A DNA stretch of 64,000 bases from Fimicolochytrium jonesii (lineage: Eukaryota): assembly GCF_025526975.1 (NCBI RefSeq), contig NW_026515675.1, positions 1 to 64,000 of the forward strand. Reading direction: 5' to 3'. How positions within the stretch are numbered: position 1 is the stretch's first letter; each line of letters starts with the position of its first letter. Shown here in pieces: positions 7,452-64,000 of the stretch. Under the pieces are notes generated by a model that saw nothing but the letters and a program-made list of their open reading frames with translations, was not told where the DNA came from and did not search any database. The translations under genes were made by a program, and so were the position numbers.

Positions 7452-7696
7452 TGTTGGAGGCATCATCCTCCCGAGGCCCCGGTTAGGGTTCCCATAGTCT
7501 ATTTCCCCACGTGACTTCCCTCCCGCTTACGCCACGTTTCCGCGTACGGGACTTCACTCTTTTCTTCCCTTTCGGACCTCGCGTCCTGTTTCTACTCCAG
7601 ACTTCTCTATATAACTTCGTATACAATAAAGGGCTTCGTCTCCCCATTACATAGAGTTCGCTCACTGTCTGCTTCCTCTGCCGACTACTGCTAAGT
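7452..7696 (+). repeat. Copia D 5' LTR (approximate)
   Basis: Starts TGTTGG exactly where C0 homology stops; TATATAA near 7608; followed by the PBS. No CA at the 3' end and no second copy to confirm it. Confidence 0.6.
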
Positions 7697-7709
7697 GGTT
7701 ATGAGCCCT
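7697..7709 (+). promoter_or_regulatory. Primer binding site GGTTATGAGCCCT (complementary to the tRNA-iMet anticodon arm; Ty5/copia-type priming)
   Basis: Exact motif; the same motif occurs at 35965 in element E. Confidence 0.85.
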
Positions 7710-7787
7710 GGCTTCGCCCGGAACTTGCGTACGAGTCAGGATAAAGAACTCACGGTCTCCCGTCACCGGTTCCCTCAGTAAAGCACC

Positions 7788-10388
7788 ATGCAACCTAAGG
7801 ATTCAACAACCCAAACTCAGAAAGCACGCTCTGCTGCACTAGCAGCCGGGAAGCCCTCCGCTCCCAATACGCGCTCTCAAGGGAGAGCTCTCCTGGACCC
7901 ACTACCTGCGGTTACTAAAGGAGGAGGAAAGAAAGTTCAAAACGCTGTTAAGAGTTCCGAATCTTCTAATGGGCGCTCTGACATTGACTCACATACTCCG
8001 CCTACTCAAGGCGTACCCCGTCATACCCAACCGCGAAGTGAACCAACACCTACCCCGCTGAAGAAAATGCCTGGTGGATTTGTGGACGAAGGGAAGAGGA
8101 AGGAGGAGTTTTCTGCGACTATTGCAGAGTTGAAAGACGCAACCACGCCTTATGTGGATGCGCCTGAATCGCATGGACCCGTGGAAACCGAAAACAACCC
8201 ATTGCTGGAGGACCCAACTGTGGCCCCCAATCAGGAGGAATCTATCCCTGTCAAGCAGGAAGACAGACTTCTTCGTCTAGAGGACCCATTTGCCAATTTG
8301 GTTGGATTGGTTACCTCCCTCTTGAATCAGGACCAAGCGCCTCAACAAGGCGGACCTACCGTCCCCTCCGTGAACCCGCTCACCCAATCGCCAGTATACA
8401 GCACTTGTTCTAATTGCTCGGCTAGCCCTATCCCGGCTAATTAGCCATATGTGGCTCCTTCGTCACCGGCACCTCATGCGCCTCCTCAGGCCGCTGCGGC
8501 TTACACCATCCCATACGCTTATCAAGCCCCAGAACGGCAGCCATACATTCAAACATCTTCTCAAGTCCCTGCTTTCGCTGAAATTCCTCAAGAAAGTGAA
8601 CCTCTGGGACCCATCATTCCCGTGACGTCCCCTACGGCCGGAAAATCACCTTCCAAGGTCTTCGTCAACAGTACACTTAGTAAACTCGGCGCCTACAATG
8701 GTAAAGCCAACGTTGCCAAGCTTCAAGTGTTCATTGATCACGTCGACGTGATTATGAAGTATCAGATGATTTCGCCTTCCGAATGCGTAGACTTTGTCGT
8801 CAACGCGCTCACTGGATCCGCTATCCAGTGGTGGAAAAGCCTTCCTGGAAACGACCTCTCTTCCATTATTTCATGGCACGATATTCAGAACGTCTATGGA
8901 CTGCCTCCTGAACTCGGATTACGCTCCGCGATGTTAAGGCGCTTCATTCCCCGCACTCATTTGCCGCAAGTTCTCAACAGACTGCACGCATTGAGACCCA
9001 AGTCTGTTAACCATCAAGGTTTAACCGAATTCGTCGCCCAGTTCAACCTTTCGGCTGGACAACTCCCTGGGCTCCCGCAATACATGCTCTGCGCCGAATT
9101 CCTTCAAGCTCTACCCAAGAATTTGAGTACCTTGGTCACTGCCCAGGAGCAATACGACGACAACCTTCGTCTTTCTCAACAAGCCGCTATCCGTATAGCT
9201 GCACAGATCAACGAGAAAACCCCGAGTATGCCTCAGTCGGGCGCATCCGCCGCCCAGGTTACTTCCACTCAACCACAGAAGGAGAAGAACGAAATATCCA
9301 AGACTGAACTCTCTAGAGGCTCCCCCTCCCCCTCCTCATCCTCTTTGGATGCACACAAGAAACCCAACTGCATTTACTGCCAGAAGGGGACGCATGAGTC
9401 TGAGGATTGCTTTACTTTTAAGAAATTCAAAAACCTTATGGACAAGAACGGGAAAACCAAGAAGGACGCACCCGCTGCAGCCTCCATGGCCCACGCCATG
9501 CCCGTTCAAGTCTTCACAGCCAACCACGACGTCCGCCTCTTTAAGGCGAATGTGGATTCGGGCTGTACGGATCATATGACCCCCAACATCGAGGATCTGG
9601 ATCCATCTTCCCTTCAAGACCACCACCGCCTTGTTGGACTCGCCGATTCTACTACCATTACTTCCCAGAAGAAAGGCACCATACTCATCCAACCTATGTC
9701 CGGCGGCAACGTGCTCGCTCTGCGCGACGTGATATTGGTTCCCGGTCTTACCCAGCCGCTTAGATCAGTTGCTAGATACACTGATCACGGCGTTACCGTC
9801 TCCTTTCACCCCACCGATGTCGTTACATTCAACACCGACACCGAATTAATCGCGATGGGAATGCGCCAAGGCGACGCGAACTATCTAGAAGGCCGGGTTA
9901 CTACATTCAAGCCCAATGCCCATGACACTGGTCGCTTCCATTACCCCCCAACTTCTCGATGAACGTCTTGGACACCCAGGAAGCCACATTATCCCGGTTA
10001 TGTCTAAGACAGTAGAGGATTGGCCTTCAGTGGGGGCTACGCCAGATTCAGGCGTACGCTGCGACGCTTGCGCTCTCGGCAAAGCTACCCGCCTTACCTT
10101 CCCTAAATCGACTTCTGCGCCATACAAACCCGGCGAGCTGATACACAGCGATTTACAGGGACCTTTTCATATCCACGGCATCGATGGACAGCGCTACAGT
10201 CTCATGTTCCTCGACGATGGCTCCAACGTCGTCCGTACCAACTCTATCAAGGACAAGGAGGCATCTACAGTCACCGCCAGGTTTATGACCTTTCCTAAAT
10301 GGCTCAAAAATCGCACTGGCGTCTCCCTCAAGCCCCTACGTACGGATAGGGGAGGCGAATACACCGGCGAGCTCACGTCGTATCTACA
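7788..10388 (+). pseudogene. gag-pol: Copia D 5' half: long Gag (gypsy-like capsid, CCHC), protease, N-terminal integrase
   Basis: CIYCQKGTHESEDC; VDSGCTDHM; ERLGHP...CDAC; HSDLQGP; RTDRGGEY; integrase directly follows protease (copia order); one stop (8442-8444) and one frameshift near 9900. Confidence 0.92.
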
Positions 10389-10723
10389 TTCAATGTGTGT
10401 TGGGTTGTCCAGTCTTATTGGAGAACGACACGTCAGCGGAACATGTATCGCTGTCTAAGTGAAACATGTTCCCGAGGTCAGCGAAAGACCTTTCGCTGTC
10501 CAAGGAAAGGTCTTTCCAGACAGTGTTCTCCAGTGTTCTCCGACCTCATGGGTACTTTAACAGTGCTCGTCGCGCGTTCCTATGCACAACAAGTAGTTCT
10601 TCTACTACATATCGCATAGCAGAGCCGGCGAACACCCAGTCCGTCTACAATACCTTACAGCAAAGTAGTTATTGTATACAAACATCAATTATACAACCTG
10701 TGTGGAAGGTAGTCCACATCACA
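10389..10723 (+). repeat. C 5' LTR (335 bp)
   Basis: Aligns end to end with the 334-bp LTR at 41329-40996; the first bases read TTCAAT instead of TGTAAG. Confidence 0.85.
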
Positions 10724-24464: not shown

Positions 24465-26939
24465 CGCACGCACCTTCAGTACCTCATCAAGTGGCAGGGT
24501 TGGCCAAGCTCGGAGAACACATGGGAGCCAGTGGAACACCTTGCCCGCTGTCAAGAGCTTGTTGCCCAGTTCCACCAAAAGTACCCCGACAAACCCCGAC
24601 CAAAGCCTGCCAACATCAAAACAACATCCGGACGCCGTGGCTAAAGGAGGGGGTGATGTTATGGACGACGCGTCCATACCATGCGCTTACCTCATGACAG
24701 CATCCCAACAGTCAGTCAATGTCAATTCCCTGTCAAAACCTGACATCTGCCAAACCTCGCAGCCGCACGCAGCCGCGCTACCCCACACCTGCCACTGCCT
24801 TCATTTCTCCACGCAGCCGCACGTCGCCACACCTCCCAACACTCGGCGCTTACAAACCCTTCTTCATACTTCCCCACGTACCCGCCCACAGCCTCAGCGT
24901 AGCCACCCCATCCCCAGTCTTCTGTTTCTATGCTTCCCCACCCTTGGCGCTTCTCTTGGCTTCCCTCTCATTCCGTACCCTTCTGCTTCCCCACGCTTCC
25001 CCAGCCTTCCCAGAAAAACATAAATAGCCGCCTCCCCTGAGCTCCCCACTTCCTGATCCCCCAGCAGATCAACACCAGTTCTTCCTAGTCTTGTTCTAGT
25101 TCTTGTTTCGGTCTGAATACCATTACCTGTCAACAACCTGCACCACAAGTCGCCTCTATTTCCATCGGCTCCGCCCATTCATAACAAAGAGTATGATTTC
25201 GACATCCAGTACACACCTGGACGATGGAATCATATTGCCAACATGCTCTCCCGCAATCCACTCTACGCGCCTCAGTGTGTAGATTGTCAACGACGCCTCG
25301 ACATGCATACGCAGATCAGGAACATGCTTGTCAACGAACCTTCCTTCAACGCTACGACAGACGATCCACAAAACTCACCTACCTGCTCAGAAGAAGAATG
25401 GAAAAAAGCGCTAGGCGAAGATCCATATTCGGATTATCTCGATGAAATTTCTCGAAAGCCCCAACACGAGAAAACTTCGAAAGAACTTCGTTATACGTTC
25501 GAAAATGGATTAGTACGACACGAAGGACGTCTATACGTTCCTGAAGACATTTGCCCGAAGATTTTGCGGAAATTCCATGACGAACTCGCCACCGGAGGAC
25601 ATCTCGGTCTTAAGAAGACTCGCGCGAGAATTCTTATGGACTATTATTGGCCTACCGTACGCTCCGACGTCATCAAATACGTTGGAACTTGCAAATCCTG
25701 TCAACAATTCAAACCTGGTCATCGTCGATACGGATTTCTTCGACCTCTTCCTATACCTTTTGGAAGATGGCACACGATCGCATTCGACATTTTCGAAGTA
25801 GATGAAACAAACTCTTGTCTCGTCTGCATTGATTACCTTTCTGGACGTGTGATTCTGACACCGATCAAGAAGACAATCACTGGACGCGAATTAGCCCAAG
25901 TCTTTCTAGATCATGTGTGGAAACATGTCGGTACGCCAAAAGTCTTCGTTACGGATCGCGAACCTCGCGCACTTTCCGACTTCTTCCTTGCATTTGATAT
26001 TCTCCTTGGTGTAAAGCACAAATTCGCTACAGCTCGTCATCAGCAAACCGACGGCAAAGATGAACGAGCCATCCAAACCCTGAAAAGCATTTGGAAGCAA
26101 TATCTCAACTACGACAAAAGCAATTGGAAGAAACTATTGCCTTTAATCGAATTCGCATACAACACTGCTCCGAGGGAGGAATATGAAGGTTTATTGCCAT
26201 TCGAAGTAGATCTTGGACACTCTCCAATCCTTCTGGGTTGGAATCCAACACTCGAAGGACAAGAACTCAAACTTCGAGCTGTAGATCGAAACGAAATCGA
26301 ACTCTTCAAGAAAGGGCAGGAAGACATCGCCCGTATCGTACGCGAAAACCTTCAGAGATCGCAAGATCAATTCGCACGTCAACACGACAAAGGTCATACG
26401 CCGATTGCCTACAGATTGAAGAACGCAGACAACCTGAATGGGTTGTAGAAGATATCATCGACGGGCGAGGCGCTGTACGAAATCTTCTAGTCAAATGGCT
26501 CGGTTATCCTGACCCTACTTGGGAACCCGAATCCGCACTTCGCTATACGCCTGCCTACAAATGATGGCGAAAAGCTCACCCACAATCTTTGTGGATACGG
26601 AGACGAACAGCGTAGAGCATCTCATATCACATCACACGCGCGACGCCGCAGGAACCGCTCACTACCAATCACACCACTGACAATAGCGACGTAAACTAAA
26701 TCACATCACGTGCGGCGACACAAGAACCGACCTTACACACACACACATATCACACACGATGTCGGCTTAGGGACGCCTTTGCCTCAAACACACACATTAC
26801 ACATCACACAGTGCGTCAACACTATAAAATGAACAAGTGCGTCAACACTTTAAAATGAACATGAGCTCTTCCTTTCTTCAGATATCCCTCGTAGTTCACC
26901 TCTTATTTATTCAGCGCCCTGCTCAGGATCTGAGGGAGG

Positions 26940-27214
26940 TGTTGGGGATATCTCATCTTCACTTGTACTTCATATTATATCTCTTTACTTCTACTTGATC
27001 CGAGACCCGGGCTGGCCACCCGAGCTCTTGGTGATACAATACATAAGGCGCCAAGCCTCACTGAAGCCACGCAAGCCCCACTGGCAGCCCCTATATAAAG
27101 CTGTCAGTTGACCGGCCGCTGCGAAGAGCTTCTTACTTTTTTCTTCACTACAATACACTGCTCTCAGCCCGCTCGGAAGGGCCCAATATCGTCTACGTTT
27201 CCTCTGACGTTACA
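26940..27214 (+). repeat. Probable family B 3' LTR (about 275 bp)
   Basis: PPT GAGGGAGG then TG...; TATATAAAG near 27092; ends ...GTTACA at the junction with C2. Only the first 92 bp are confirmed by a second copy. Confidence 0.6.
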
Positions 27215-30200
27215 GGGCTTCCCGCAGTTTCTGCTGCACTATGAGTTCAATGAATCGGTATGCCTCAGCACGCTTCTCCATCGGTTTGATGAGCTCACGT
27301 TGTGACTTATGCAAGAATGGGATCGAGATATCGTCCATACGTTGCAACACCTTTGTGTCAACTTGCCAATGCATCGGCGCCTGCGGAATTCTACCCAAAT
27401 CAACCTCGAAAGGGCAGTATCCAGTGCTGTTCTGCGTACGGTTGTAGGCAAACTCCAACATCGGTGGTTTGTCAACCCAATCGTCTCCCGTTACATTAAG
27501 GTACGGTTCAATCATCTTCTTCAAGATAGAGATACACCGTTCGACCTTTCCGTCCGTCTGTTGGTGTCGTGCCATGCTCAAGCTCTCCTAGAGCCCAACA
27601 ACGATTGAAATGCCTTCCAGAAGTCTGCCAGGTAGCGGGGATCTCGATCTCCGACGATCACAGCTGCAGTACCTGTATGGCGCCATACCTCATGGAAGTA
27701 AAGCTGGGCCAACTCCTCGGCAGTTATCGTGGATTTCGCAGGTATAAAGTATGCGCGCCCTGACAGATAGTCGATGAAGACAATAACACTGTCGTAAGAC
27801 GCATCACTATGCACCTTCCCCCCCCACAACTGGGTTATTGGCATCGAGACAGGGTCCATATCCATCGTGTGCCAACGTCGGTCGGGAACTGGGAGCAAAC
27901 GAAGTAAGCCAACACCCTTATTCTTCGGCAACTTGAACCTTTGGCAAGACCCACAAGTCTTCATGTATCCTCTCACATCTGCGTCCATATTGCGCTAGTA
28001 AAACTCACGTAGGAGCTTGCCAATGTACCTTGTACCCCCGTATGCGAGCCAGAGAGCAACGAGTCGTGGTACGCTTGCAATACAGTCCCTCGTAAAGCAG
28101 CTGGCACATAGAACTTATCGTGGTACAGTAAACGACCATAGTCATCGATCGAAAAACGGCAATCGAATGTAGAATGTCGTTCCTTTGGCTGTGACAACGC
28201 CTCTTTCCGCAAAGCAAAGTACTCATCAGCCTCCAAGGTTCGTATCCAATCTTTAAGCCTAACATTCCACAAAGGAATATACTCAACGGACATCCCCATG
28301 GCCGCAGCGATTTCAACTCGCTAGTTACACTCGGCGCAGCGAGGAGCGTAATAAGGATTACGACTCAACACATCCGCAACGGTGTTCCAGCGACCAGGTT
28401 GATATTCAATATCAAATTTGAATTGTTGCAGGAATTCAACCCATCGTGCTAGGCGATGGCTCAGGAAGGGCTGTGTCTGCAGCGGGACCAAACTAGCGTG
28501 ATCGGTGAACGCACAAAACGGGCGGTCATTCATCCGATCCTGCAAGTAATGCCTGTTCGCCTTGCATATGCTAACCAGAGCTAATAGCTCTTGTTTGTGC
28601 ACGGGGTAACGTGTTTCAGCGGGTTGCATCTTCCGCCCAAAGAAAGCTATTGGATTTAACGGAGGCAGATTCTTAAATCCCTTCACTGAGGTAGGCAACG
28701 GTGATGGGTAGTGCTCCGCTGGGTCCGCCGGCTGGGCGAGCCATCCTCCTATTGCAAAACCCGACGCATCCGTGAACATGTATAGATCTCGCTCCGGGTC
28801 GTAGGACGCAAGCGTAGGAGCTGTAATAATAGCTTCCTTCAGCTTAACAAAAGCCGTCTCTTTGACATTGCCCCAGTGCCAAGGCCTTTTGCCCGACTGT
28901 AGCTCTGTCAATGGATACGCGATGTATGCATAACGATCGACGTATTGACTCAAATAATTTGTTAACCCTATGAAAGACTGAACCTCTTTCTGCCTTGTAG
29001 GGCGTGCAAAGTTCCGCAGGGCGTCCAATTTCGAGAGTGCAATGGCCATCGTATCCTCGCCTAATAGATGCCCGGAGAATTCAAGCTCCTTCTGCATCCA
29101 TTTGCACTTGGACGGCTTAACATAGAGTTTATGTTCAGCGAGAACAGCCAAAACGCTGTCCACATGAGGGATATGCTCCTCGGCCGTTTCCGAGAAGATT
29201 AAGATATCGTCTAGGTAAGATATGACATACGCATCGTACGTCTTACCCAATATCTTATTGGTTAACCGTTGGAACGTTGCTGGCGCAATCGTCAGCCCAA
29301 ACGGCATAATCAAATACTCAAAATGGCCAAACCGCGTCCGAAACGCTGTTTTGTCCCTATCAGCCTTGCGAACTAAGAGGCGGTGATACGCATCTTTGAT
29401 GTCCAACAACGACTTGAATTTCTTTCCACGTACCCGATCCCGCATCTCAGCAAGATTCGGTAACGGCGTACGGTCCTTTATCGTTGCTTTATTCAGCCCA
29501 TGATAATCAATGCACATACGTAAGGTGCGATCCTTTTTCTTAGCAAATAACACTGCGGCGCCCCACGGGCTCTGCGAGTGTTGAATCCAACCGCGCTCCA
29601 GCATGAGAGTAACCTTCTCATTCAGCTCTTTGAGTTCGGCTTTGCTCATATGCCATAAAGGACTAACAACAGGCTTCGTACCCGGCTCCAGCTCGATATG
29701 GAACTTATCCTCTCCCCTATCGGGCGGCAAATCGGCGTGCTCAACAAACAAACTATCCACGTACTTTTCTAACGTTGGATAAAGACGGTGATCCGATGGC
29801 ATGCCCAAATCAACCTTCTTTGTCCTGCAGCTTCGCTCATTTGAACCTCTGGCTCTGGTTCGGCGCGATCGCGCTCATCTGCGGGGACATAAGCCGGTGA
29901 TGCATTCACAGCAGCCTCTCTGTCCATAGCGTATGCTATGTAACACTTCCCATACACCTTTTTTCGAGATAAGCGAGTGAACTTCTGATAAGTTACCACT
30001 CCTGCACTCGGGTCTTCTCGTTCAGGCATCGCCGCCTTGAATCGTTTAGATTTCTTTCTGGTGTCCTTGTTGGCGTTGAATGTATGGCCGTCGTCGCCCC
30101 AGGCGACATCAATGGGCATTTTAGGGTTATAGGTTTGGAAACCATGTTTCCACACCCATCCCTGACGTACCATCAGTGCTGTGCATCCCGTATCGATCAG

Positions 30201-32628
30201 AATACGACAAAACTTGCCATTCAACTTGCCATGAACTACAAATGCACATAGTGCGATCAACGCATCGGGTTGCAATTGCAGTGCTTCAGGCCTAGTCTTC
30301 AAAACGGTTTCAGTGTCGTCTGGCCGGCACAGGCGCGCCCCCGCAGCAGACGTATTGCCACAATCAACCAGTATACCATCAGCGGACTCAGGGCGTATAG
30401 CCTCAAGTTCCTCTTCAATGGACACCATTGCACAATGAGACGAATAAACGGTGTCTTTATTAAGCGTCTCTACTGAAAACCCTTTTTCTGACCAGCGTCC
30501 AAACGTGGCTTATCCTTAGCCTCGTCGGACTTCTTATCCTTCTTCTTTTTAGGACAATCTCGCGCACGATGACCCATCTCGCCACAATCGAAACACTTCA
30601 TGTGCGAGAGGTCTGGGCGTGCGTAAGGTTTAGTAGCTTCCGCCTTCTTAGCTTCCCCCCCCTTCTTGCCCGCAGTACCCGCGGCAGAAGAGACATTAGC
30701 ACGTTTAGGCGCACTACTACCAGAAGCAACTGCTTTATCGTTCGCGTCGGTTCCCTTCTCGGCGAGGCGACGTACAGCAAACGAACTAAGCGCACGATCC
30801 ATCAACTGAATCAATGGAAATGCGAGCAGAGGGTGTTGCTCCCTATAATCGACCATCGTATGCAATAACGACTGGGCGATCTCATAGCCGACGGTATTGG
30901 TCTTATCGTAAGTAAGACCACAAAGGAACAGGTTATTCGAATCGTCCGGAGCGATAACCTCCAGGTTGCGCTGTGCCTCGGCAACGATACGTTTGGACTC
31001 CGTCACATACGAATCCATCAACTTATGAAAAGTCATTCGGTGCAGAGCATTGAGCGCGTTGGTTTTCGCGTTCGTAGGATAAAAGGCTCATTTGAAAGCC
31101 GTTTCAAAATCCTCTTTCCGCATGTCAAGCCTGCATGCGGTGTCGAACCAGGTACGTGCGTCGCCTTCAAGCGAGCTAGATACCTTCTGCATGTACTTCA
31201 AGTCGTCAATCGGAAGACCAAAAGTAACCATGAAGTCCGTATGCTTCCGCAAAAACGTGTCGACAAAAGCGGCCTCGCGCCGTTTGCCATTAAACGGATG
31301 CTGCGAGATCCATGTACCATGGTGTCTACGCTGCTCAATATGGAACGGATCCACCGACCCATCCTGCAGCACATCGCGGCGCATCGCGGAGTCACGCTCC
31401 AACGTAGCTCGCAAACGATCCTGTCGAGCCTGATGTTCCTCGGCATGTTGATCGTGAACTTCTGCTTGAGCGGCAGCCGCAGCAGCCTTCATTCGGGCAC
31501 TAAGCTCCTCGACGGAGATCGTCAACATAGCCGTAGCGGGCGGGTTCCCAGCAGAAGGTGGGGGAGGTCCACCGACCTGGATACCCTCCATTGGAACAGG
31601 TCCCGTTGTTTGAGGAGGAGGAGGAAGGGGAACTTCAACACGAGGTTTGTCAACCAACGTTTCCGGCTCGTCAACGATCTCAGTAATAACAGCTGTACCT
31701 CCAGGAGCAGTTTCCTCACTCCTGGTAACTGTACTACCTGTTGATGTACTCATGACGACCTTCTGGCCAGTGTAATCTCGTTTGCAGGTCGAATAACCTC
31801 AAACAATGACGAATACGTACAGAATGCGGACAGGAGTACTCCGTTGATGTTGTATAGCTCAGTACCTCGAGGAAATACACACAAACAACTAGGTTTCAGG
31901 TATATGCCGTATGCAAAAACCAAAATCCGGGCATAGATTTTCCCTCTTTTTGAGCGAAAAATCCCCAAAATCCACCGTGTCCGATGTTGGCGGGTTTTGG
32001 CTACGTTGATCCTAGACAGAATCTAAAGCTATCAGTTTAAAGAGGCCTTTGAGAGGATCAGGAAGAACCCTAATGGCTTAGCTTTGTCCCAAAACTGAAA
32101 GACTTTTTCTATCCGCCCGTTTTCGCTTAAGTATCGAATTGATGACGAAGGCGATGACGGATTACTCGTTTTGCAGTGATTCAAAAATCCCAAAGCGTTC
32201 AGGTAAATTCAAGGTAATTCTCTGGATCGGGAAGAACCTTATCGGGGGCCGTTTCGGTCAAAACTGTCATAGTTTTGCTATACGGAGGTTATAGTGGCGA
32301 CGATTTAGCGCGTTTTTCGATATCTCCGCTTCCGTAGGTCGAATCTCTTTGAAACTTTCACAAGTCTTCAAGCTCAGTGTGCTCTGCGAGGTTTCCAAGT
32401 TTGAAGTGGATCGAATTACTGGGGTAGATTTCTGATCCGCAAATGGGTTACCAATTGGGTACTAGTAAACATGCGTTTATGTCGACTACGTGTCGACCGT
32501 CGAACGTATACTCTCAAGATGTTGATATACCAAAAGAGTAAGGTATGGATGGCAAACTGTGAGTTACGGAGGTTTGTTTAACCATCCAGGTGCGAAAAGC
32601 GAGGTGGTTGCGACGTATCGGTCGTCCC
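27215..32628 (-). mobile_element. Family C copy C2, truncated at both ends: leader, gag (31753-30470, stop at 31088), pol through integrase
   Basis: ORFs 31088-31753, 30470-31036, 29769-30428, 28321-29808 (YLDD) and 27578-27988 are all close homologs of C1. Confidence 0.95.
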
Positions 32629-33187
32629 TCCAGCTGTACCTCCGCCGGGACCCTTAAGACCGAGTACGCGCTCAACGCGCGCATCTTCCGCAGCGGCTGC
32701 AAGTGACTCCTCGATGTCGAAATCCCGTGTGAGAGAAGCTCTTCAACTGGCGACGGAGGTGGCAACGTTTCAAAATCGGAAAGATACCCATGAGAACCTT
32801 GCGCAACACCTGGCGGCTTCCCATGCGAGGCTGCAGCAATCCAAGAGAAGGAAGGGGTCGTTCGAGGCGCTGATGGAGGAGGCAGACTACCTTGGGTGTA
32901 AGGCAGTCTCGGAGTCGCAATACATAGGAAAGGGGGGCATTTCAAAGGAGAAAATGAAGGAGGCGAAGCGCCGCAGTGATGCGGATGAGAGACATAAGCG
33001 AGACAAGTTGATGAAGTGACTCCAGTACTTGAGAAAGCACATGGATGATTCGTCTTGGGGTGATGATGGTGACAGTGACGGAAACGGCGGGGGTGGTGGT
33101 ACAGGGGGTCCGCCTGATGGAGGCGGAGCCGGAGCTGGTGGAGCCCCCGGTGCCGGGGCAGCGGTGGCTATCACGGTGGCGGGTTAA
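32629..33187 (+). pseudogene. Antisense extra ORF remnant downstream of copia D RNase H; unknown function; charged and helical with a Gly-rich tail
   Basis: ORF 32714-33019 continues past a TGA as LQYLRKHMDDSSWGDDGDSDGNGGGGGTGG...AITVAG* (TAA 33185-33187); converges on the pol stop at 33246. Confidence 0.5.
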
Positions 33188-33245: not shown

Positions 33246-35387
33246 TTATTCGGACGTAGTTGTCGCCGGCTGTCTATTGCTAGCGACACGTCCTTCTTGA
33301 ATTGCCTGAATAAATTTTGTATGTGTCTCGGGAGGAAAAGGCTTAGTGAAGTAATGAGCCAATTGTTCCTGCGTCGCGGTGTCAAGGAGTATGACATCCT
33401 TCTTCGCCACGCCGTCGCGTAGTTTGTGGTAGCGTACGTCGATGTGTTTGGAGCGTTGAGTAATAGGCGTGGAGTTGGCAAACTCGCGGGCGCTCTGATT
33501 GTCGATGAGGATTGGCGTGGATTCCTTGATGTTGCCGTATTCGTTGCCGAAGACCTCCGCCATAATGGAGCGGAGCCAGTAGGCCTCGTTGTGCCCGAAG
33601 GATGCGGCGATATAGTCAGCTTCCGTGGAGCTGAGAGCTACGCACTTCTGTTTGGTGCTTTTCCAGTAGATAAGCTGGCCGTTGAAGAGGGTGGCAATGC
33701 CCGCCGTAGATTTGCGGTCATTGACATCGTCTGCGTATGATGCGTTGGTATAGACGGGAAGTCCAACTTGATCAGAATCACCGGACTTGTAGGTAAGCTC
33801 GAAGGTGCGGGGTCCTTTAAGGTAGCGCATGACGCGAAGTACATCATTCCAGTCAGCTTGGGTAGGAGCCGAGACCTGACGGGCAACGAAGCCGATGGCA
33901 GTTGAAATATCCCAGCGCCAGGTAATGGATGCCCACGTGAGGGCCCCCACTGCTTCCTGGTAGAGAAGCTTGTTAGGAAAAGGGGGGCTTGCGGAGGCTA
34001 GTCGGGTACGCGCAGAGACGGCGCACGGCGTAGAGACCGGGGTAGCGTTTTGTTGTCCAAATCGTTCGAGTAAACCGTCGATGTAGGTAACATTGCTGAT
34101 TTTAAGTTGGTTCCCGGACGGCGAGAGCTGGTAATCGAAGACCAGACCCAGGCAGTTCTTGATGGGACCGAGATCCGTACAGTTGAAATGAGAACATAGT
34201 TCACCTTTCCCTTGCTTGACATGTACGGGAAAGCAGCAGGCGATGAAGTCGTCCACATACATAAGGAGCATCTGGAGGGTGTCCAGCGTGCGCGTCGTGG
34301 TTGCGTAGCGATAGAAGACGCAAGGGCAGTTCTTCAGCAGGGTATAGCTGAGAGAACCGAGGGTTTCGCGAAGGGTGCGGTGCCAGAGAAGCGGAGATTG
34401 CTTCAGACCGTAGAGAGCCTTGCAAGGGAGATAGACCAAGTCTCCGCGCGGTTTGTGCGGATCTTTGTAGCCTTGAAATTGTTCAACATAGTCGGGACCG
34501 TTGATGTCGCTGCATAAGAAGGCGTTGGGTACATCAAGTTGATGAATCTCCATACCAAGAGGGATGGCAATGGCGAGGAAAAGGTGAAGAACTGACATGG
34601 GTAGGGTTGGCGCGTAGGTGTCATTATAATCAATGCCCTTGGTTTGACAAAAGCCTTGAAGGACGCCCCGACCCTTGAATTTCTTGAAAGTACCATCCGG
34701 ATTGAAGATTTGACGAAGCACTACCGAGTACGCGCTGATTGTACGGACGGGGTACGAGCTCCCAAGTACCGTTATCGACGAGAGCTTGGAACTCTTTATC
34801 AGCGGCGATCTAGAAGTTGGCTGATTGCGGCGAGGCCATCGCTTGGCGCCAGGTCATGGTGACGGATTGAGGGGTGTCGTCGGTACGCGCGTTGGAGGCA
34901 CACAAATAGTCCTCAATGGTTCTGGGGTGTAAAGCCTCTGGACGGGTCTCCCAGATGTCCAACGCTTCAGTCTCAATGGGATCAGAGCGTGGTTGCCAGG
35001 TATGGGTAGGAAAACCAACCCACTTGACTAAGTATTCCTTTTGAGTGTTCTTGCCGCAGCGGCGTTGACGTTCAGAAAGGATGTGTTCGATAGCGAACTC
35101 CTCTGGTGAGTGGGTAGCATCTTCTAGAAGGTCCAGAAGAGCAGGATCTTGACGAAGGTGTGCAGGGAGACCAGTAGATTCGTCAAAACGAACGTCACGG
35201 GAGACTGCGACAGCGTCGCGTACCGCATCCCATACGTAATAACCTTTAGTACCTTGTTGGTGAGCGTAGCGGACGGTAGAGCGATTAGCCATCATGTCCC
35301 GGCCCTTGGGTGGAACGACTGTATACGTGAGACATCCAAGCTTGCGAAGATGCGCGACGCTTGGGCGGCGACCGGTAAGGTATTCGA
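33246..35387 (-). pseudogene. pol: Copia D 3' half: integrase C-terminus, chromodomain, RT, RNase H
   Basis: KGYYVWD...SRDVRFDE; chromodomain 35103-34948; QLDVPNAFL; KALYGLKQSP; YVDD; ALSSTEADY; SKHIDVRYH. Confidence 0.94.
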
Positions 35388-35964
35388 GACGTGTCTTGGG
35401 AGGCTCTGAAGATGTCTGGACCGTTTCCCAGACATCCAGGCATCAGCACTGCGCTTTCATGATGTTCTTAGACCTCATAGCGGTCAGTAGTGCCCATATG
35501 GCGCTGTGATCGGGTTGTAGTAGCTAGATTGGGTTTTATTGAGCTTGTGGAAGCCTGTAGCACCTTCCGCGGACTTGGCAGACGCCCATGGGGCATCAGC
35601 AGGTACCTGTGAGGCTACACAGACTTGGCAAAACCTTACAAACCTTACCAACCTTAACTGCGGCACTCAAAGATGCATTGGGCGTTCTGAGGGGGTCTCA
35701 GAGGGTGCTTTGGAGGCCCCAGCACATAGCACATAGCTAAATCCCCAAGAAAGAAGCCCCAGATTCCTATAAAAGGCAGACCTGTTGCCCATCCCCTCCC
35801 TTCACTTTATCCTCTTCAATACACTACTTTCTATCGCACTACTCTAGCCACACTACTGTCTTCTACATCACAACACTGTCCTTTGGGCAGCTACGTCCCT
35901 CAGTCAACGGCGAATCAGTCTTAGTGACCTTTCAGATACACCTATATCAGCTAAGATTTCAATA

Positions 35965-35977
35965 GGTTATGAGCCCT
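35965..35977 (+). promoter_or_regulatory. PBS GGTTATGAGCCCT (half-tRNA-iMet type)
   Basis: Directly abuts the LTR end TTTCAATA. Confidence 0.88.
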
Positions 35978-36224
35978 GAGCTTTATCATCACTAAAACCG
36001 TCTTCGCCAATCCTATTCAAGACGTTCCCAACCCCCTGCGGACGCTACCTGCGACCTACCCTCGACATACCCTTCCAAAATCACCATTTTTCGACCAAAA
36101 ACACACCAAAGTGCTCAACTCAACAAGATACGCACTACTTGACACTCAAAACGCGTCCAACGATATACCATCATCCAAAACGCGTCCACACACCCGAAAC
36201 ACACAACTTTAGCTCGAACACACA

Positions 36225-38265
36225 ATGGCTGGAGACTCAGAGACTTCGAAACTTATGGTGGATAAGTTCACAGGGGAAAACTACCATCTATGGAAGTTTA
36301 GGATGATGATGATGTTGAAGGCGAAGGGACTTTGGGTGGCAGTGGAAGCTGGGAAGAAGGAGAAGGAAAGAGCTACAGCTACAGCAAGCTCGTCGCAGGG
36401 AAAGGGGGCTGAAGGGGAGGAGGAGGAGTCGATGGAGAGGAAGGACAAGAGGGCTTTGGCATACATCTGCCTCAGTCTGAACGACACGCAGCTTATGCAT
36501 GTGCATACAGCTCAGACGGCTTGGGAAGCCTGGTCTAAGCTAGCTGAGGTGCACGAATGAAAGGGGCTTGCCAGCAAGCTCTTCCTACGTCGAAAGTTCC
36601 TTACCATCAGTATGGACAAGGCTGACTCGATCACAAACCACATCAACAAAGTCAGACAGCATGCACAACAGCTGGAGGCTACCGGCGCACCAGTACCCAA
36701 AGACAATATCATGACGACCTTGATATACAGCTTACCAAACAGCTACGAACAAGTCATCACAAGCCTCGAAAGCAAGGCGGACAACTTAGACATGGAGTTC
36801 TTGACGGCCAGACTTCTGAATGAAGAAGCTAGGCGCAAGGAGAACTCGAAACCGGTCAGATCAACTGGAAACGCCTTCGTTGGGGATGGGGGACACCAGC
36901 AGGAGGCTGGGGGTTCAGCCAGGTTCGCCAGGAAGAAAGGAAAGTGCCATCATTGTGGTATTGAAGGGCACTGGAAGAACGAGTGCAAGAAGCTCAAACA
37001 ACAGCTAGCTCAAGCCAATAATGCGAATCAAGCCGAACCACACCACGCCAGCCAGGGAACCGGGTTCCTCTTCATGGCAGCTATGAAACGCACTGAAATC
37101 AGCCCAGAGTGCTGGATTATCGATTCAGGAGCCTCCTCACACATGACACACGTCAGGGAATGGCTCCAGGACTACAAGACGCTGGAAACCGAGATCCAGG
37201 TCTAGCTGGCTGACAACCGGTCAGTCCTAGCCATTGGAACAGGCTCCATCTCGATCAGAACACACGGGGAGCACGTTGGCAAACTTCGAAACGTCTGGTT
37301 CGTTCCCAAACTGGAAAAGAACCTCATCTCAGTAGCCCAGCTGACTGAGAACGGAGCACAGGTCGAGTTCTCGAGTGCAGAGTGCACAATCCAGACCAGG
37401 GACGGTGCTTTCGCCTTCAGAGCTCTCAAGGAGAACGGTCTGTACACCATGACAGCCCAGGCTATCCCTGAACACGCCTACTCAGCAGCAGCACTTCGTA
37501 GCACACCCTTTCATGTATGGCATCAGAGACTCGATCATCTGAATGCCCAAGACGTCCAGAAGCTCACCAACGGCTACCAACATGACATCAGAGTCACCGG
37601 ACATCCTGATGGCCACATCTGCGAAGTCTGCACGCTCTCCAAGCAGTCCAGTGCTCCCTCCTCGAAGAAACAAGCTACCCGAGCCACAGAAGTCCTGGCA
37701 CTCGTCCACACTGACCTCTGTGGCCCCATGAGGACGTCTACCTCTGGGGGATGTACCTACTTCGCATCATGGATTGATGACAAGTCCAGAATCATCTGGG
37801 TCAAGCTCCTACGCAGGAAAAGCGATACCTTTGATGCCTGGGAGGAATACAAGGCCCTTATGGAGAGACAGACTGGGAAATCATTCAAAGTCCTCAGATC
37901 GGACAAAGGAGGCGAATACGAATCCATCCGATTCGCCCTCGCACTCAGAAAGGCTGGAATCCAACACCGGCGCGCTGCTACCGACACCCCACAGCAGAAC
38001 GGAGTAGCGGAACGTATGAATCGAACTCTAGTCGAAATGGCACGCTGCCTGCTCACCCAGGCTGGTCTCGGACACGAATACTGGGGAGAAGCTCTGCTTG
38101 CAGCTGTCCACGTTCGAAATCGTTGCCCTACGGCTGCCCTAGACAACTTCAAGACGCTGTACAAAGCCTTTTTCGGTTGCAAGCCCATCCTCCTTTATCT
38201 CGAAGTGTTTGGATGTATAGCCTATGCTATGGTTCTCAAGAAAAACCAAGGAAAGCTGGACAACA
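36225..38265 (+). pseudogene. gag-pol: Copia E gag-protease-integrase, single frame with in-frame stops
   Basis: FTGENYHLWKFRM; CHHCGIEGHWKNEC; WIIDSGASSHM; WHQRLDH...CEVC; HTDLCGP; SDKGGEY; QQNGVAER. Confidence 0.95.
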
Positions 38266-38871
38266 TATTGAAACCTTAGCTGATATAGGTGTATCTGAGA
38301 GGTCACTAAGACTGGTTCGCCGATGACTGAGGGACATAGCTGCCCAAAGGGCAGTGTTGTGATGTAGAAGAGTAGTGTGGCTAGAGTAGTGCGATAGAAA
38401 GTAGTGTATTGAAGAGGATAAAGTGAAGGGAGGGGATGGGCAACAGGTCTGCCTTTTATAGAAATCTGGGGCTTCTTTCTTGGGGATTTAGCTATGTGCT
38501 ATGTGCTGGGGCCATCAAAGCACCCTCTGAGACCCCCTCAGAACGCCCAATGCATCTTTGAGTGCCGCAGTTAAGGTTGGTAAGGTTTGTAAGGTTTTGC
38601 CAAGTCTGTGTAGCCTCACAGGTACCTGCTGATGCCCCATGGGCGTCTGCCAAGTCCGCGGAAGGTGCTACAGGCTTCCACAAGCTCAATAACACCCAAT
38701 CTAGCTACTACAACCCGATCACAGCTCCATACGGGCACTACTGACCGCCATCAGCTCTAAGAACATCATGAAAGCGCAGTGGTGATGCCTGGATGTCTGG
38801 GAAATGGTCCAGACATCTTGAGAGCCTTCCAAGACGCGTCCTAAGTCTTGCAGAGCCTTCTAAGTGCCACA
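38266..38871 (-). repeat. Inverted family E LTR nested in E, with adjacent deletion
   Basis: Reverse complement of about 40290-40898; intact TCAATA end at 38266. Confidence 0.93.
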
Positions 38872-40270
38872 ATGCCATACTAGTCGCCCAAGGCTTCTCG
38901 CAAGAAGAGGGAGTTGGCTACAACAAAACATTCGCACCAGTGGCCAAGTTCAACACCATTCGGCTACCCCTGTTGTGGGGAGCAGCTCAGGACCTCGAAA
39001 TGGACCAAATGGACGTGTCCACCGCATTTCTGAACCTGACACTGAGTGAGGAGATCTATATGAAGCAGCCACCGGGCTACATCAAGCCAGGAGAAGAGCA
39101 TCTCGTGCTTAAACTCAAGAAGACACTCTATGGTCTTAAACAAGCCCCCAGGGAATGGAACATCAAAATCCACGGCACTCTCGTTGAGAAAGGCTTCACT
39201 CGTCTTGATTCAGACCATTGCATCTATATCAGGCTCTTTGAGGGCTGGCTACTCATCCTGATCCTCTATGTGGACGATCTCATACTTGTGAGCAACAAGA
39301 GACTCGATCTTGACAGCTTCAAGGCCAAGGAACTTCGTACGAAATGCGTGATCTAGGTGCCCTGCACTACTTCCTGGGTCTCCTAGTCACTCGAAACCGA
39401 GCCAAACGACTCCTGACGCTCAACCAGACTGGGTACATCGAAAAATGCCTTGAAACATACGGGATGACCGATTGCAAGCCTGTATCAACTCCCAGCGTCG
39501 TGGGAAGCCCTCTCACGAAGGAAATGGCACCTCAAACGCCTGAAGAGACTGCAGAGATGCAGAACAAGCCCTATCGAGCCATTGTAGGCAGTCTGATCTA
39601 CACAATGATCGGCACAAGACCAGACATAGCCCAAGCAGTTGGAGCTGTGAGCCAGTTCTTAGCCAATCCAGGCAAAGCACATTGGAAAGCTGCCAAACGC
39701 ATTTCGGCGTATCGCAAGACGACCAAACACTACCAACTTCGACTGGGAGCCGTCCAAGGAACCCCCAAACTCGTGGGACGGTCAGACTCAGACTGGGGAG
39801 GCTGCCCAGACACTCGCAGAGCGACCACAGAATACCTCTTCACCTACGGCGGTCCAGTAAGCTGGATATCATGCAAACAACGCACTACAGCACTCTCCCC
39901 CACCGAAGGCGAATACATGGCACTCACTGACGCCTGTAAAGAAGCCGTGTGGCTCAGATCTCTACTCAGAGAACTGAGCAAGCACCAAGACAAGACAGAA
40001 CTCGTCCAAGGCCCCACAGTCATCTGGGAAGACAACCAGGAAGCTATGGCACTCGCCACAAACCCAGTTCACCATGCACAAACCAAGCACATCGACATCC
40101 GATACCACTTCATTCGTAAACAAGTCGCACACAAGAAAGTTACCGCCCAGAACTGCCCAACAAAGGAGATGATAGCTGATGCGCTCACCAAGCCCCTCCC
40201 CATGCCGGACTTCACACGTCTGAGAGCTGGGATGCACTTAGAGGCTGCAGAGCCTTCAAGTGAGAGGGAG
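38872..40270 (+). pseudogene. pol: Copia E RT-RNase H
   Basis: LVAQGFSQ; QMDVSTAFL; LYGLKQAP; YVDD; SDSDWGG; TKHIDIRYH; frameshift near 39340. Confidence 0.95.
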
Positions 40271-40898
40271 TATTGAGATAGCATCAAGATGCGGCACTTA
40301 GAAGGCTCTGCAAGACTTAGGACGCGTCTTGGAAGGCTCTGAAGATGCCTGGACCATTTCCCAGACATCCAGGCGTCAGCACCGCGCTTTCATGATGTTC
40401 TTAGAGCTGATGGCGGTCAGTAGTGCCTGTATGGCGCTGTGATCGGGTTGTAGTAGCCCAGATTGGGTTTTATTGAGCTTGTGGAAGCCTGTAGCACCTT
40501 CCGCGGACTTGGCAGACGCCCATGGGGCATCAGCAGGTACCTGTGAGGCTACACAGACTTGGCAAAACCTTACAAACCTTACCAACCTTAACTGCGACAC
40601 TCAAAGATGCATTGGGCGTTCTGAAGGGGTCTCAGAGGGTGCTTTGATGGCCCCAGCACATAGCACATAGCTAAATCCCCAAGAAAGAAGCCCCAGATTT
40701 CTATAAAAGGCAGACCTGTTGCCCATCCCCTCCCTTCACTTTATCCTCTTCAATACACTACTTTCTATCGCACTACTCTAGCCACACTACTGTCTTCTAC
40801 ATCACAACACTGCCCTTTGGGCAGCTACGTCCCTCAGTCATCGATGAACCAGTCTTAGTGACCTCTCAGATACACCTATAGCAGCTAAGGTTTCAATA
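40271..40898 (+). repeat. Copia E 3' LTR (628 bp), termini TATTGA...TCAATA
   Basis: Abuts the PPT; 6-bp inverted termini; TATAAAAG near 40702. Confidence 0.9.
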
Positions 40899-40995
40899 AT
40901 GCGGTCCAGCAGCATCCAATTGAGGCGCTCAGCTTTTCATTTTGTTGACTCGAATATGCGTCAGTAGACTCATGGGTAATCCCATTGTCGTGTAG
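40899..40995 (-). pseudogene. 97-bp copia D integrase core fragment
   Basis: Translates as LHDNGITHESTDAYSSQQN(fs)KAERLNWMLLDR, directly continuing ...GELTSY at 10383. Confidence 0.85.
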
Positions 40996-43900
40996 TGTGA
41001 TGTGGACTACCTTCCACACGGGTTGTATAACTGATGTTCGTATACAATAACTACTTTGCTGTAAGGTTTTGTAGACAGACTGGGTGTTCGCCGGCCTGCT
41101 ATGCGATATGTAGTAGAAGAACTACTTGTTGTGCATAGGAACGCGCGACGAGCACTGTTAAAGTACCCATGAGGTCGGAGTCCACTGGAGAACACTGTCT
41201 GGAAAGACCTTTCCTTGGACAGCAAAAGGTCTTTCGCTGACCTCGGGAACATGTTTCACTTAGACAGCGATACATGTTCCGTTGACGTGTCGTTCTCCAA
41301 TCAGACTGGACAACCCAACACACCTTACATACCCCCCAGATTCTACGACGCGAACCTGCCCAGCAAGCTCCAGCAAAGTAGAACTTGTATCTGAAGGTGT
41401 CCGGGATCGCACCCAGCGCAATGCTTTGATGGTCCTCGTCGCCGTCAGTCCAAATAACCATATCTCGTGGGCTTTCCCAACGACCGTCGTGAGTATTGAC
41501 GCTTGCAGTCATTCCAATTTAAAGGTATTGCCATCCACGCTGCCTGCTACCGGCAGCGGGTTCCCCAGCTGTGAATGCAACGGGTGTGCTGTATTGTATC
41601 GCACGTTGCCTATACAAGTTGTCGGGCAATGGATATACGCATCCACTGAGCCAACGAAGCTCTGTTGTTCAGAGTCAACGCCTATGTGTACCTCCGGGCA
41701 TACACACCACCGAGTCTCCAGGAGTGATCAGTTCCTGCTTACTCGTTACGGACGGCGGCCGTAAACGCATTTACCCAATGCGGATGTCGTTTACCATCAA
41801 GGGGTTGTGTTAACACTCGTTTTGTGTAGCACGTTGCAATCCCTTTCACAGCTTTGACTTATGCCCAAAGATATTGTGAACGAGAACTTCTCTACAACAT
41901 ATCCGATGTTTTTATTAGACAGAAGGTCCCATCCGGCTACAGATCATTCATGGCCTCCAGCCAACCGTGCACTCTTGCGTCGCAGAGCCTCAGTTCCCTT
42001 AGAGCGCTTCCGCTGTCGCTTATCTGTAACGGATTCTACTTCACCATGGACCAAGATGAAGTCGTCTAACGCAGCGCAGTCTTTCACTTGCTCGTGCGCT
42101 TCCCATGTAGTCTGCTCAGGTGGGTAACCGACCCACTGAACGAGATCCTCAGGTTTTCCATGGACCAACCTACATCCGATAATCTTATCAACATAGTATT
42201 CTTCCTCGCCTTCGACTTGGACGGGCTCTGGGTTAGAGTCCTCTACATCGTCGATGCGCAGCGGATCTGAAGTCGGCTCGTGCCAAGGCTTCAAGATATC
42301 CGTATGGAAGACCGGGTATAAAGCGCCCATTAAAGCTGGCAGCTCTAACTTGTACGTTTCCGGGTGTGGTCCTTCCTTCTTCACGATGAAGGGTCCCAGC
42401 CAGCTCTGTCTAAACTTGAGCGGCTTCTTATTCAAAGCAGGGATCGTTATCCCGTCGCTGTTCAACAGGACTTTATCTCCTGGACTAAAGCTCTGTACAC
42501 GACGTCCACGATCGTGATACTTTGCTTGTTTGTCCTGGGCTTCCCGCAGTTTCTGCTGCACTATGAGTTCAATGGATCGGTATGCCTCAGCACGCTTCTC
42601 CATCTGTTTGATGAGCTCACGTCGTGACTTATGCAAGAATGGGACCGACGCATCGTCCATACGTTGCAACACTTTTGCGTCAACTTGCCAATGCATCGGC
42701 TCCTGCGGAATTCTACCCAAATCAACCTCGAAAGGGCAGTATCCAGTGCTGTTCTGCGTACGGTTGTAGGCAAACTCCAACATCGGTGGTTTGTCAACCC
42801 AATCGTCTCCCGTTACATTAAGGTACGGTTTAATCATCTTCTTAAAGATAGAGATACACCGTTCGACTTTTCCGTCCGCCTGTTGGTGTCGTGCCGTGCT
42901 CAAGCTCTCCTAGAACCCAACAACGATTGAAATGCCTTCCAGAAGTCTGCCAGGTAGCGGGGATCTCAATCTCCGACGATCACAGCTGCAGTACCTGTAT
43001 GGCGCCATACCTCACGGAAGTAAAGCTGGGCCAACTTCTCGGCAGTTATCGTGGATTTCGCAGGTATAAAGTATGCGCGCCCTGACAGATAGTCAATGAA
43101 GACAATGACACTGTCGTAAAACGCATCACTATGCACCTTCCCCCCCCACGACTGGGTTATTGGCATCGAGACAGGGTCCATATCCATCGTGTGCCAACGT
43201 CGGTCGGGAACTGGGAGCAAACGAAGTAAGCCAACACGCTTATTCTTCGGCAACTTGAACCTTTGGCAAGACCCACAAGTCTTGATGTACCCTCTCACAT
43301 CTGCGTCCATATCGCGCCAGTCAAACTCACGTAGGAGCTTGCCCAATGTACCTTGTACCCCCGTATGCGAGCCGGAGAGCAACGAGTCGTGGTACGCCTG
43401 CAATATAGTCCCTCGTAAAGCAGCTGGCACATAGAACTTATCGTGGTACAGTAAACGACCATAGTCATCGAACGAAAAACGGCAATCGAATGTAGAATGT
43501 TGTTCCTTCGGCTGTGACAACGCCTCTTTCCGGAAAGCCAAGTACTCATCAGCCTCCAAGGTTCGTATTCAATCTTTGAGCGTAACATTCCCCAAAGGAA
43601 TATACTCAACGGACATCCCCATGGCCGCAGCGATTTCAACTTGCTTGTTACACTCGGCGCAGCAAGGAGCGTAATAAGGATTACGACTCAACACATCTGC
43701 GACGGTGTTCCAGCGACCATGTTGATATTCAATATCAAATTTGAATTGTTGCAGGAATTCAACCCATCGTGCTTGGCGATGGCTCAGGAAGGGCTGTGTC
43801 TGCGGACAGACCAAACTAGCCTGATCGGTGAACGCGCGAAACAGGCGGTCATTTGTCCGATCCTGCAAGTAATGCCTGTTCGCCTTGCATATGCTAACCA

Positions 43901-44024
43901 GAGCTAATAGCTCTTGTTCGTGCATGTGGTAACGTGTTTCAGCGGGTTGCATCTTCCGCCCAAAGAAAGCTATTGGCTTTAACGGTGGCAGATTCTTAAA
44001 TCCCTTCACTGAGGTAGGCAACGG
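40996..44024 (-). mobile_element. Family C 3' half (copy C3): RNase H, integrase, chromodomain, 3' UTR, PPT, complete 3' LTR (41329-40996)
   Basis: ORFs 43569-44051, 42966-43559 and 41944-42903; GGGGGGTA|TGTAAG...CATCACA. Confidence 0.94.
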
Positions 44025-45124: not shown

Positions 45125-45144
45125 TGGCGATCCTACCAGGAGTC
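45125..45144 (+). promoter_or_regulatory. PBS TGGCGATCCTACCAGGAGTC (tRNA 3' end complement, probably tRNA-Arg)
   Basis: Reverse complement GACTCCTGGTAGGATCGCCA reads as T-arm, acceptor strand and CCA; the Arg identity is an inference. Confidence 0.7.
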
Positions 45145-55031: not shown

Positions 55032-55094
55032 ACCTTGTACATACATCAAAACAGAGTTTCTACTGTCCGAAATGATGATTACCATTACGGACTC

Positions 55095-55373: not shown

Positions 55374-55459
55374 ACGATCGGTGAAGTACCAAAGGGAAAC
55401 GCTCCGAAGAGATCAAATTCAATAAAATTTATACAAGAAAGAAGAACGACAACGCCAGG

Positions 55460-62511: not shown

Positions 62512-64000
62512 TAGATTATATTGGGGTTCTACGCTCTGGGGTGACTCCCGAAGGGAAGAAAAGCCTTCGGGCGGCGCCCCGGGAGGTAGAAACTCTAGAA
62601 TTCTTTCAATACATCGAGCGGAGACAGAGCTAGCCTCTGGCAACGGACCTAGCATTATTGCACGCTCGCTCAGTCGCCAGTGAACAGCACTCGCACTCAT
62701 TATTGGACTAGCCCTATCCAGGCAAATGTGCCATATATGACTTCTGTGTCGCCGGCACCCCATGCGCCTCCTCAGCGCGCTATGGCCTACTCCGTCCCGT
62801 ACGCTTATAAAGCCCCGGAACGGCATCCTTACTTTCAACCTCGTTCTCAAAGCCCTCCTTTCAATGAAATTCCTCATGAAAGTGCATCTGTGAGATCTGT
62901 TACTCCCGTAACACCCCCTACGGCCGGCAAATCAGCTTCCAAAGTCTTCATCATCACTACCCTTAGTAAACTCGGCTCTACAACGGCGATCCCAATGTTA
63001 CCAAGCTTCAAGGGTTCCTTGATCACATCGACGTAATTATGAAGTACGAGATGATTTCGCCTTCCGAATGCGTAGACTTCGTCGTCAACGCGCTCACTGG
63101 ACCAGCTCTCCAGTGGTGGAAAAGCCTTCCTGAAAACGAGCGCTTCTCCATAATTTCCTGGCACAATATTCAAGACGTCTATGGACTGCCCCCGCGACTC
63201 GGATTACGCTCCGCAATGTTGAGGCGCTTCATTCCCCGGAATCATCTGCCGCAAGTTCTTCACAGACTGCGCGCTCTGAAGCCCAAGTCAATTAACCATC
63301 AAGGTTTAACCGAATTTGTCGCCCAGTTCAACCTTTTGGCTGGATAACTCCCCAGGCTCCCGGAATACGTGCTCTGTGCCGATTTCCTTCAAGCCCTTCC
63401 TAAGAATCTTAGTACCCTGATCACTGCTCAGGCTCAGTACGATGATAGACTTAGTCCTTCTCAAGAAGCCGCGATTCGTATAGCCGCCGAGCACAACGAG
63501 AAGACCCCGAGTATGCCTCAGTCGGGGGCATCCGCTGCCCACGTTACTTCCACTCTACCTCAGAAGAAGAAGAACAAATCCAAGACTGGCGGCTCCAGAG
63601 GCACCCCCTCTACCCAATCCTCATCTTCTGACGCAACCAAGAAGCCTCCCCAATGCAAATACTGCAATAGGGACGGCCACAAGTCGGAAAACTGCTTTAC
63701 TTACAAAGCTGTCAAGGATATCATGGACAAGAACGCGAAAAACAAGGCACCCGCTGCAGCCTCCATGGCTTATGCCATGCATGTTCAAGTTCAACCAGCC
63801 AACCACGACGTCTGCCTCTTCAAGGCGAACGTGGATTCCGGTTGTACGGATCATATGACCGCCTATATCAAGGATCTAGATCCATCTTCTATTCAAGGCT
63901 ACCAACGCCTTATTGGACTCGCGGATTCGACTACCATTACCTCTCAAAAGAAGGGTACCGTACTTATCCAACCTACGTCCGGCGGCGAAGTTCTCGCTCT
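62512..64000 (+). pseudogene. gag-pol: Diverged copia D-family gag-protease fragment (D2), running off the window
   Basis: MKYEMISPSECVDFVVNALTGPALQWWKSL; CKYCNRDGHKSENC; VDSGCTDHM; homologous to about 8400-9720. Confidence 0.92.

Follow-up and report, generated by a model that had tools for sequence, protein, structure and literature searches.

Related systems and the place of the new locus

An integrase chromodomain serves as an almost diagnostic character of the chromoviruses, and the 2009 survey of LTR elements by Llorens et al. (PMC2774666), in its relevant passage, knew a Ty1/copia case only from diatoms, namely the CoDi-A integrases, which carry a putative chromodomain absent in other copia elements. 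The diatom domain is restated in part of Ustyantsev et al. 2017 (PMC5348765). Excerpts of PMC6317226 give the chromodomain as absent outside chromoviruses among plant LTR groups, the main text of a paper on ascomycete copia elements (PMC5445492) contains 'chromo' 0 times, and the available sections of PMC3248453, PMC6875170, PMC2864245 and 10.1101/2021.11.30.470311 add no copia case; Supplementary Table 6 of the last of these compiles 823 chromatin-domain/transposon fusions. In the text of open-access articles we found no account of a chromodomain copia outside diatoms or of a copia element with a gypsy-type capsid. The sequence-only reading of the DNA analyzed here had called such chromodomains rare in copia; it had missed both the CoDi-A precedent and the gypsy-type capsid described below.

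The window (the whole stretch of 64,000 nucleotides that was analyzed) contains a decayed copia element, termed A, which shares with CoDi-A/CoDi-I of Phaeodactylum tricornutum the copia gene order and the position of the chromodomain, which ends the integrase and precedes the reverse transcriptase (RT), as outlined in passages of PMC2774666 and PMC5348765. It differs in that its host, as judged from the adjacent elements and from the ascomycete affinities of the chromodomain, is probably a fungus rather than a diatom, in that its chromodomain is most like those of ascomycete chromoviruses, and in that the capsid of its lineage is of the Retrotrans_gag type, a comparison made by descriptions only. 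With fungal chromoviruses (MAGGY and the clades in PMC2864245; passages of PMC3350952) the lineage shares a type I chromodomain that has the aromatic cage and follows the integrase, the short loop seen in gypsy integrase tails of Berkeleyomyces and Blastomyces, and the Retrotrans_gag-type capsid. However, chromoviruses have an RVT_1 polymerase with the integrase after RNase H, whereas A has RVT_2 with the integrase before the RT, a protease and SH3 domain of the copia type, and a chromodomain that is internal to the polyprotein rather than terminal. The oomycete element Chronos, as characterized in part of PMC5348765, likewise captured an integrase chromodomain independently outside the chromoviruses, but is a Ty3/gypsy element with a second RNase H. 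Ordinary copia elements (element B of this window; FunCo and GalEa, PMC5445492) share with A the protease-integrase-RT-RNase H order and RVT_2, and the primer-site sequence of A's lineage is that of B; unlike A's lineage, they lack a chromodomain and their Gag is of the Retrotran_gag_2 type. The design is known in kind from diatoms, whereas for A's apparently separate lineage, with its unusual capsid, we found no published description. A separate, probably fungal, copia lineage with an intact chromodomain cage and a gypsy-type capsid would add one more convergent gain of a chromatin reader, and possibly a case of module exchange between two superfamilies. Such copia elements can be misfiled by domain-based classifiers.

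A chromodomain in the copia integrase-RT frame

A single minus-strand ORF of 210 amino acids (35442 to 34810) spans the SH3-like end of the integrase, an acidic linker, the chromodomain and the pre-RT motif, in that order (Table 1); its first 18 codons are LTR sequence of another copia element. The peptides quoted in the sequence-only reading were recovered in this one frame at the place it gave, on the minus strand, which it had omitted. Of the two profile searches it had proposed, that with RVT_2 gave a match to A's RT (Table 1) and that with Chromo gave one at threshold. In the whole frame SH3_retrovirus matches at ORF residues 23-90 and Chromo (PF00385) at residues 116-154 with E 1.2e-4 and 22.3 bits, under the Pfam cut-off of 25.1; an isolated 67-residue piece scores 25.3 bits, barely over it. 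A phmmer search of the PDB with this piece returned 53 sequences at E<=1, every one of which is named as a chromodomain protein. A chromodomain HMM made from 21 sequences other than the query, among which are several close relatives, scored the ORF at 52.6 bits, as against 10.2 for the best of 2000 shuffles. Over residues 100-148 the AlphaFold model forms a three-strand sheet with a C-terminal helix, at a pLDDT of about 80-90, and the top Foldseek rows for the ORF model are chromodomains at E 0.005 or weaker, none reaching E<=0.001. In an alignment to HP1 the three aromatic residues F, W and F, which the sequence-only reading had picked out as a cage, do fall on the cage positions Y24/W45/Y48. 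Together these observations show that a real type I (cage-bearing) chromodomain sits inside a copia pol.

Table 1. Features of element A, its probable 5' half and adjoining elements (positions in the window)
Feature	Position	Strand	Remarks
Element E: LTR-like start, primer site at about 7697-7708, Gag, protease, integrase N-half	7452..10388	+	matches P0003 residues 2-571
Capsid domain, Retrotrans_gag / Ty3_capsid type	8658..9227	+	PF19259 E 4.2e-7, PF03732 E 1.4e-6
Gypsy family C LTR	10389..10723	+	CTACA just before, at 10384-10388
Copia RT (RVT_2) and RNase H of element A	33246..34721	-	Pfam E 7.6e-33; 49% identity to P0003
Premature in-frame stop	34810..34812	-	the beginning of RT stays in frame as far as a frameshift near 34721
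Copia pre-RT motif	34828..34854	-	in frame with the chromodomain
Chromodomain type I, F/W/F aromatic cage, short-loop variant (two residues shorter than HP1)	34942..35097	-	Pfam, HP1 alignment, profile, model
Copia integrase C-terminal SH3-like domain	35173..35376	-	PF25597, E 1.9e-13; 4-residue gap relative to relatives
Copia element B, ordinary	35388..40898	+	inserted in A's integrase; Retrotran_gag_2 Gag; no chromodomain
Element A integrase core fragment	40899..40995	-	collinear with about residues 570-600 of P0003
Matching gypsy family C LTR (96%)	40996..41329	-	on the minus strand followed by CTACA (40995-40991), then A's integrase core
Second copy of E's Gag-protease region, 81% identical	62663..64000	+	ends at the window edge, before any chromodomain position

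Decay of element A and its probable 5' half

The RT of element A is of the RVT_2 type with a copia RNase H, and the SH3 end and a core fragment of its integrase lie upstream of the RT on the same strand. The stop and the frameshift listed in Table 1 separate the chromodomain frame from the RT body, and with these lesions, deletions and nested insertions this copy of A is dead. At the junction with B about 40 codons of A are gone and the left LTR of B lacks its first 50 bp; an inverted solo LTR of B's family lies inside B at 38266-38871. The LTRs of B start and end with TA, instead of the TG...CA form. Downstream (3') of A's RNase H there is an antisense reading frame (32582..33187, plus strand) that is charged, glycine-rich and interrupted by one stop, and the first part of which gave no Pfam match; P0003 and P0005, relatives of A introduced below, likewise have long low-complexity tails after RNase H. 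A 3' LTR for A was found neither after this frame nor elsewhere in the 64-kb window.

The 5' half of A most likely survives as element E. Coverage of the relative P0003 is collinear, E ending at its residue 571 and the core piece of A beginning at about residue 570; CTACA flanks both family C LTRs, the one beside E and the one beside A; and the integrase of E groups with the clade of A's relatives with a support of 99 in the integrase tree. On account of these features we take E and A to be one element that was split by insertion of gypsy C and then either inverted between C copies or misassembled. In the family C LTR beside E 3 of 7 first bases differ, so that the target-site duplication is not perfectly clean. 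Family C is present as four pieces in both orientations, with several deletion junctions (10951-17426, 27215-32628, 41472-44026 and 6244-7452), and these pieces are likely to have been the substrate of the proposed inversion.

The chromodomain as a trait of the lineage

An RT search gave 2381 matches, the best 120 of which were examined. The closest RTs among the matches listed, those of P0003 (49% identity) and P0005 (40%), belong to intact single-ORF polyproteins in which SH3, chromodomain and RVT_2 follow each other in A's order, with Chromo E-values of 1.2e-7 and 0.009 respectively; across the stretch from SH3 through the chromodomain to the pre-RT motif P0003 is 43% identical to A. These are the only 2 of 121 proteins (the best-listed RT matches plus one from a word-based search) to carry a chromodomain. 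Searching exhaustively with the SH3-chromodomain frame, we obtained 410 matches at E<=0.001; among the best 150 of these, 20 have both domains, 59 SH3 only, 70 the chromodomain only and 1 neither. One of the 20, P0231, is a copia/gypsy chimera, which leaves 19 of the 150 listed as copia proteins with SH3 and chromodomain. The word-based search with the same frame retrieved a single ordinary copia protein and not P0003, a search with the Gag region retrieved P0003 only, and a scan of viral contigs for relatives found nothing.

In all three RT-RNase H trees A, P0003, P0005, P0123 and P0189 form one clade with a support of 100 (supports here and below are SH-like or SH-aLRT values), and the chromodomain is present in 5 of 5. 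Similarly, in an integrase tree from which the chromodomain columns had been removed, 11 of the 13 rows labelled as having the domain come together with an SH-aLRT of 97, these rows including P0125 (domain start only), P0127 (cut inside the domain) and E itself. The relatives of the lineage come from metagenome records. Seven apparent tandem or multi-RT fusion proteins were excluded from the RT tree, and thinned sets were used for the chromodomain tree (17 of 39 multi-chromodomain proteins), two RT trees and the integrase tree. The same in-frame order, which the sequence-only reading proposed to look for in other copies, recurs in P0003 and P0005, the domain itself is present throughout the RT clade, and at the level of sequence comparison the chromodomain is a trait of A's whole small lineage and not a one-off scrap of gypsy sequence.

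Beyond this clade the picture is less uniform. The wider RT grouping of chromodomain copias with a gypsy-like capsid has supports of 42, 92 and 87, and P0091, an ordinary copia, falls inside it in both IQ-TREE runs. The chromodomain carriers P0151, P0155 and P0213 fall outside the main group, as does the metagenome locus L007, and because of these placements copia may have gained a chromodomain several times. P0213 combines a chromodomain with a Gag of the ordinary copia type; it is distant from A's lineage in both trees, and its chromodomain pairs with that of P0178. A scan of metagenome loci gave 16 at 23-37% identity, none of them close, and 2 of the 16 have a chromodomain of a different type directly before a divergent copia RT on metagenome contigs (L007:279-437 and L011:124-282). 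L007 lies in a far clade and, since its six nearest tree neighbours show no chromodomain, its domain is possibly another independent capture.

A possible role in targeting silenced chromatin

We propose, with moderate confidence, that this lineage-wide integrase chromodomain, preserved here in a decayed copy, would in active relatives bind a methylated lysine of histone H3, probably K9, and tether the integration complex to silenced chromatin. As in chromoviruses, the protease would cleave between chromodomain and RT, such that the domain stays on the integrase. It could then read H3K9me2/3 as the chromodomain of MAGGY is stated to do in a passage of PMC3350952, and thereby hold the integration complex at silenced chromatin. 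Consistent with this, passages of PMC6317226 and PMC3350952 report cage-bearing type I chromodomains as the class that binds H3K9me, and the cage is retained in most relatives, at only 40-50% identity.

It is also possible, if rather unlikely, that the domain is conserved in the lineage but does not aim at H3K9me heterochromatin, recognizing instead another mark or partner or tuning the integrase as in Tf1. The loop next to the cage is two residues shorter than in HP1, residues beside the cage are altered, and in P0005 the central cage residue is F. There are also precedents: according to the corresponding section of PMC3350952, loss of the chromodomain raises the activity of Tf1 integrase in vitro and lowers its specificity, and brown algal chromodomain elements are described in part of 10.64898/2025.12.07.692804 as centromeric or dispersed. 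Against this stand the reported binding of the type I class and the alignment of all three cage aromatics with HP1 despite the divergence of the relatives, which keep targeting of silenced chromatin as our preferred interpretation.

The sequence-only reading had further taken the location of A in this nest as fitting heterochromatin targeting, an argument that does not hold: no chromodomain match was obtained for copia B, for the solo LTR of its family or for the large element at 44025-52486, all of which lie in the same nest, and since B and the latter element landed there without the domain, the location is uninformative on targeting. Transitions between copies of the repeat families C and F occur at CpG in 46-47% of cases, as against 26-28% expected (78/168, 24/52 and 24/51, two of the comparisons sharing one copy); this enrichment suggests that the repeats are CpG-methylated and has no bearing on how A arrived. 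With A carrying the domain and B devoid of it, one genome offers a natural pair for asking whether a chromodomain suffices to redirect copia integration.

Source of the chromodomain

The short loop is found in A, in 8 of 8 near relatives and in 7 of the 8 matched gypsy integrase tails, and most other chromodomain copias have a longer loop. A gypsy integrase tail is the best pairwise chromodomain match of each of A, P0003, P0122 and P0123, and two such tails are the ascomycete ones named above; the gypsy comparison set was itself chosen by similarity to A's chromodomain, and the 48-column chromodomain tree supports the grouping with gypsy tails at only 66/90. Sequence affinities of this kind make it likely that the domain was captured from a short-loop fungal chromovirus. 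Given that chromodomain copias are scattered in the RT trees and that A's domain resembles those of fungal chromoviruses, it is plausible, as the sequence-only reading had inferred, that the acquisition was independent of that in other chromodomain copias.

It is, by comparison, improbable that A's lineage shares one old copia acquisition with diatom CoDi-A, by inheritance or transfer and with no separate fungal capture. The domain has the same position in CoDi-A, going by the description in PMC2774666, and the top two Atlas feature matches are clusters with few members, from diatoms (0.88 and 0.84), which serve as a lead only; however, the best single-domain matches are the gypsy tails, and the trees call for 3 to 5 changes to account for the chromodomain copias, the starred branches forcing only 1 to 3. 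A donor nearer at hand, a neighbouring gypsy element of the window, was considered and rejected: no DNA match to 34942-35097 was found elsewhere in the 64-kb window at E<=1e-8, and among all classes compared with A's chromodomain, the gypsy chromodomains of the window itself have the lowest scores (mean 66 versus 108-126). The gypsy family at 1202-2470, 4379-5667 and 25952-27036 has a short-loop chromodomain that is yet not close to A's. Finally, a one-off gypsy fragment or assembly chimera in frame in a dead copia, the former having been the sequence-only reading's own counter-case, may be conceivable in a rearranged nest with 12 other chromodomain matches and with chimeras such as P0231 in existence, but its probability is negligible in view of the same two window results and of the collinear proteins P0003, P0005, P0122 and P0123, which include intact relatives from unrelated samples.

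The capsid of the lineage

The Gag regions of E and P0003 match PF03732/PF19259, not the usual copia Gag, Retrotran_gag_2, and Atlas concurs. As some plant copia Gags also match PF03732, this label is no proof by itself. With an HMM of 73 ordinary copia Gags, B was the sole match in the window. Among the 8 chromodomain copias with a whole Gag, 7 have the Retrotrans_gag type, alignable to that of E (in P0005 weakly), the exception being P0213. A profile of the Gags of this type scores 32-37 bits against the Gag of gypsy family F in the window, and no other protein compared exceeds 10.1 bits; 69 of the 121 proteins of the RT set, including P0003 and P0005, were long enough for Gag to enter this comparison. 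In hhalign the wider Gag profile gives gypsy 94.5% over 125 columns versus copia 76.1% over 60, but with the profile of the nearest clade alone there is no gypsy preference (gypsy 28.6 versus copia 39.1).

The predicted capsid fold scores Z 13.0 against PEG10 (rmsd 2.0, 86 residues aligned), 11.5 against Drosophila Copia (8.6, 155), 10.4 against dArc1 (9.1, 159) and 10.1 against Ty3 (6.0, 151), the scores for these and Ty1 all lying within 3 Z units. E's Gag sequence found no match in the PDB, and its model found none in Foldseek at E<=0.001. In its sequence the capsid leans toward gypsy, and its fold favours neither side. One may tentatively, and with more doubt than belief, envisage an old Ty1/copia branch that is a mosaic of copia protease, integrase, RT and RNase H with a chromovirus capsid and chromodomain, in which the sub-clade of A took or swapped in the short-loop chromodomain of a fungal chromovirus. 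Were this so, copia elements would have gained a chromovirus-like way of hiding in heterochromatin.

Other elements of the nest

Two young chromovirus copies, at 19307-25186 and 55796-61673, are 98.6% identical to each other, with LTRs at 98-99% and clean 5-bp target duplications, and each has at least one premature stop in its chromodomain. A large LTR element at 44025-52486 has 823-bp LTRs that are 95.5% identical; three of its frames have no Pfam match and its flanks form no target duplication. A short tandem array with periods of 32 and 92 bp occupies 55094-55401.
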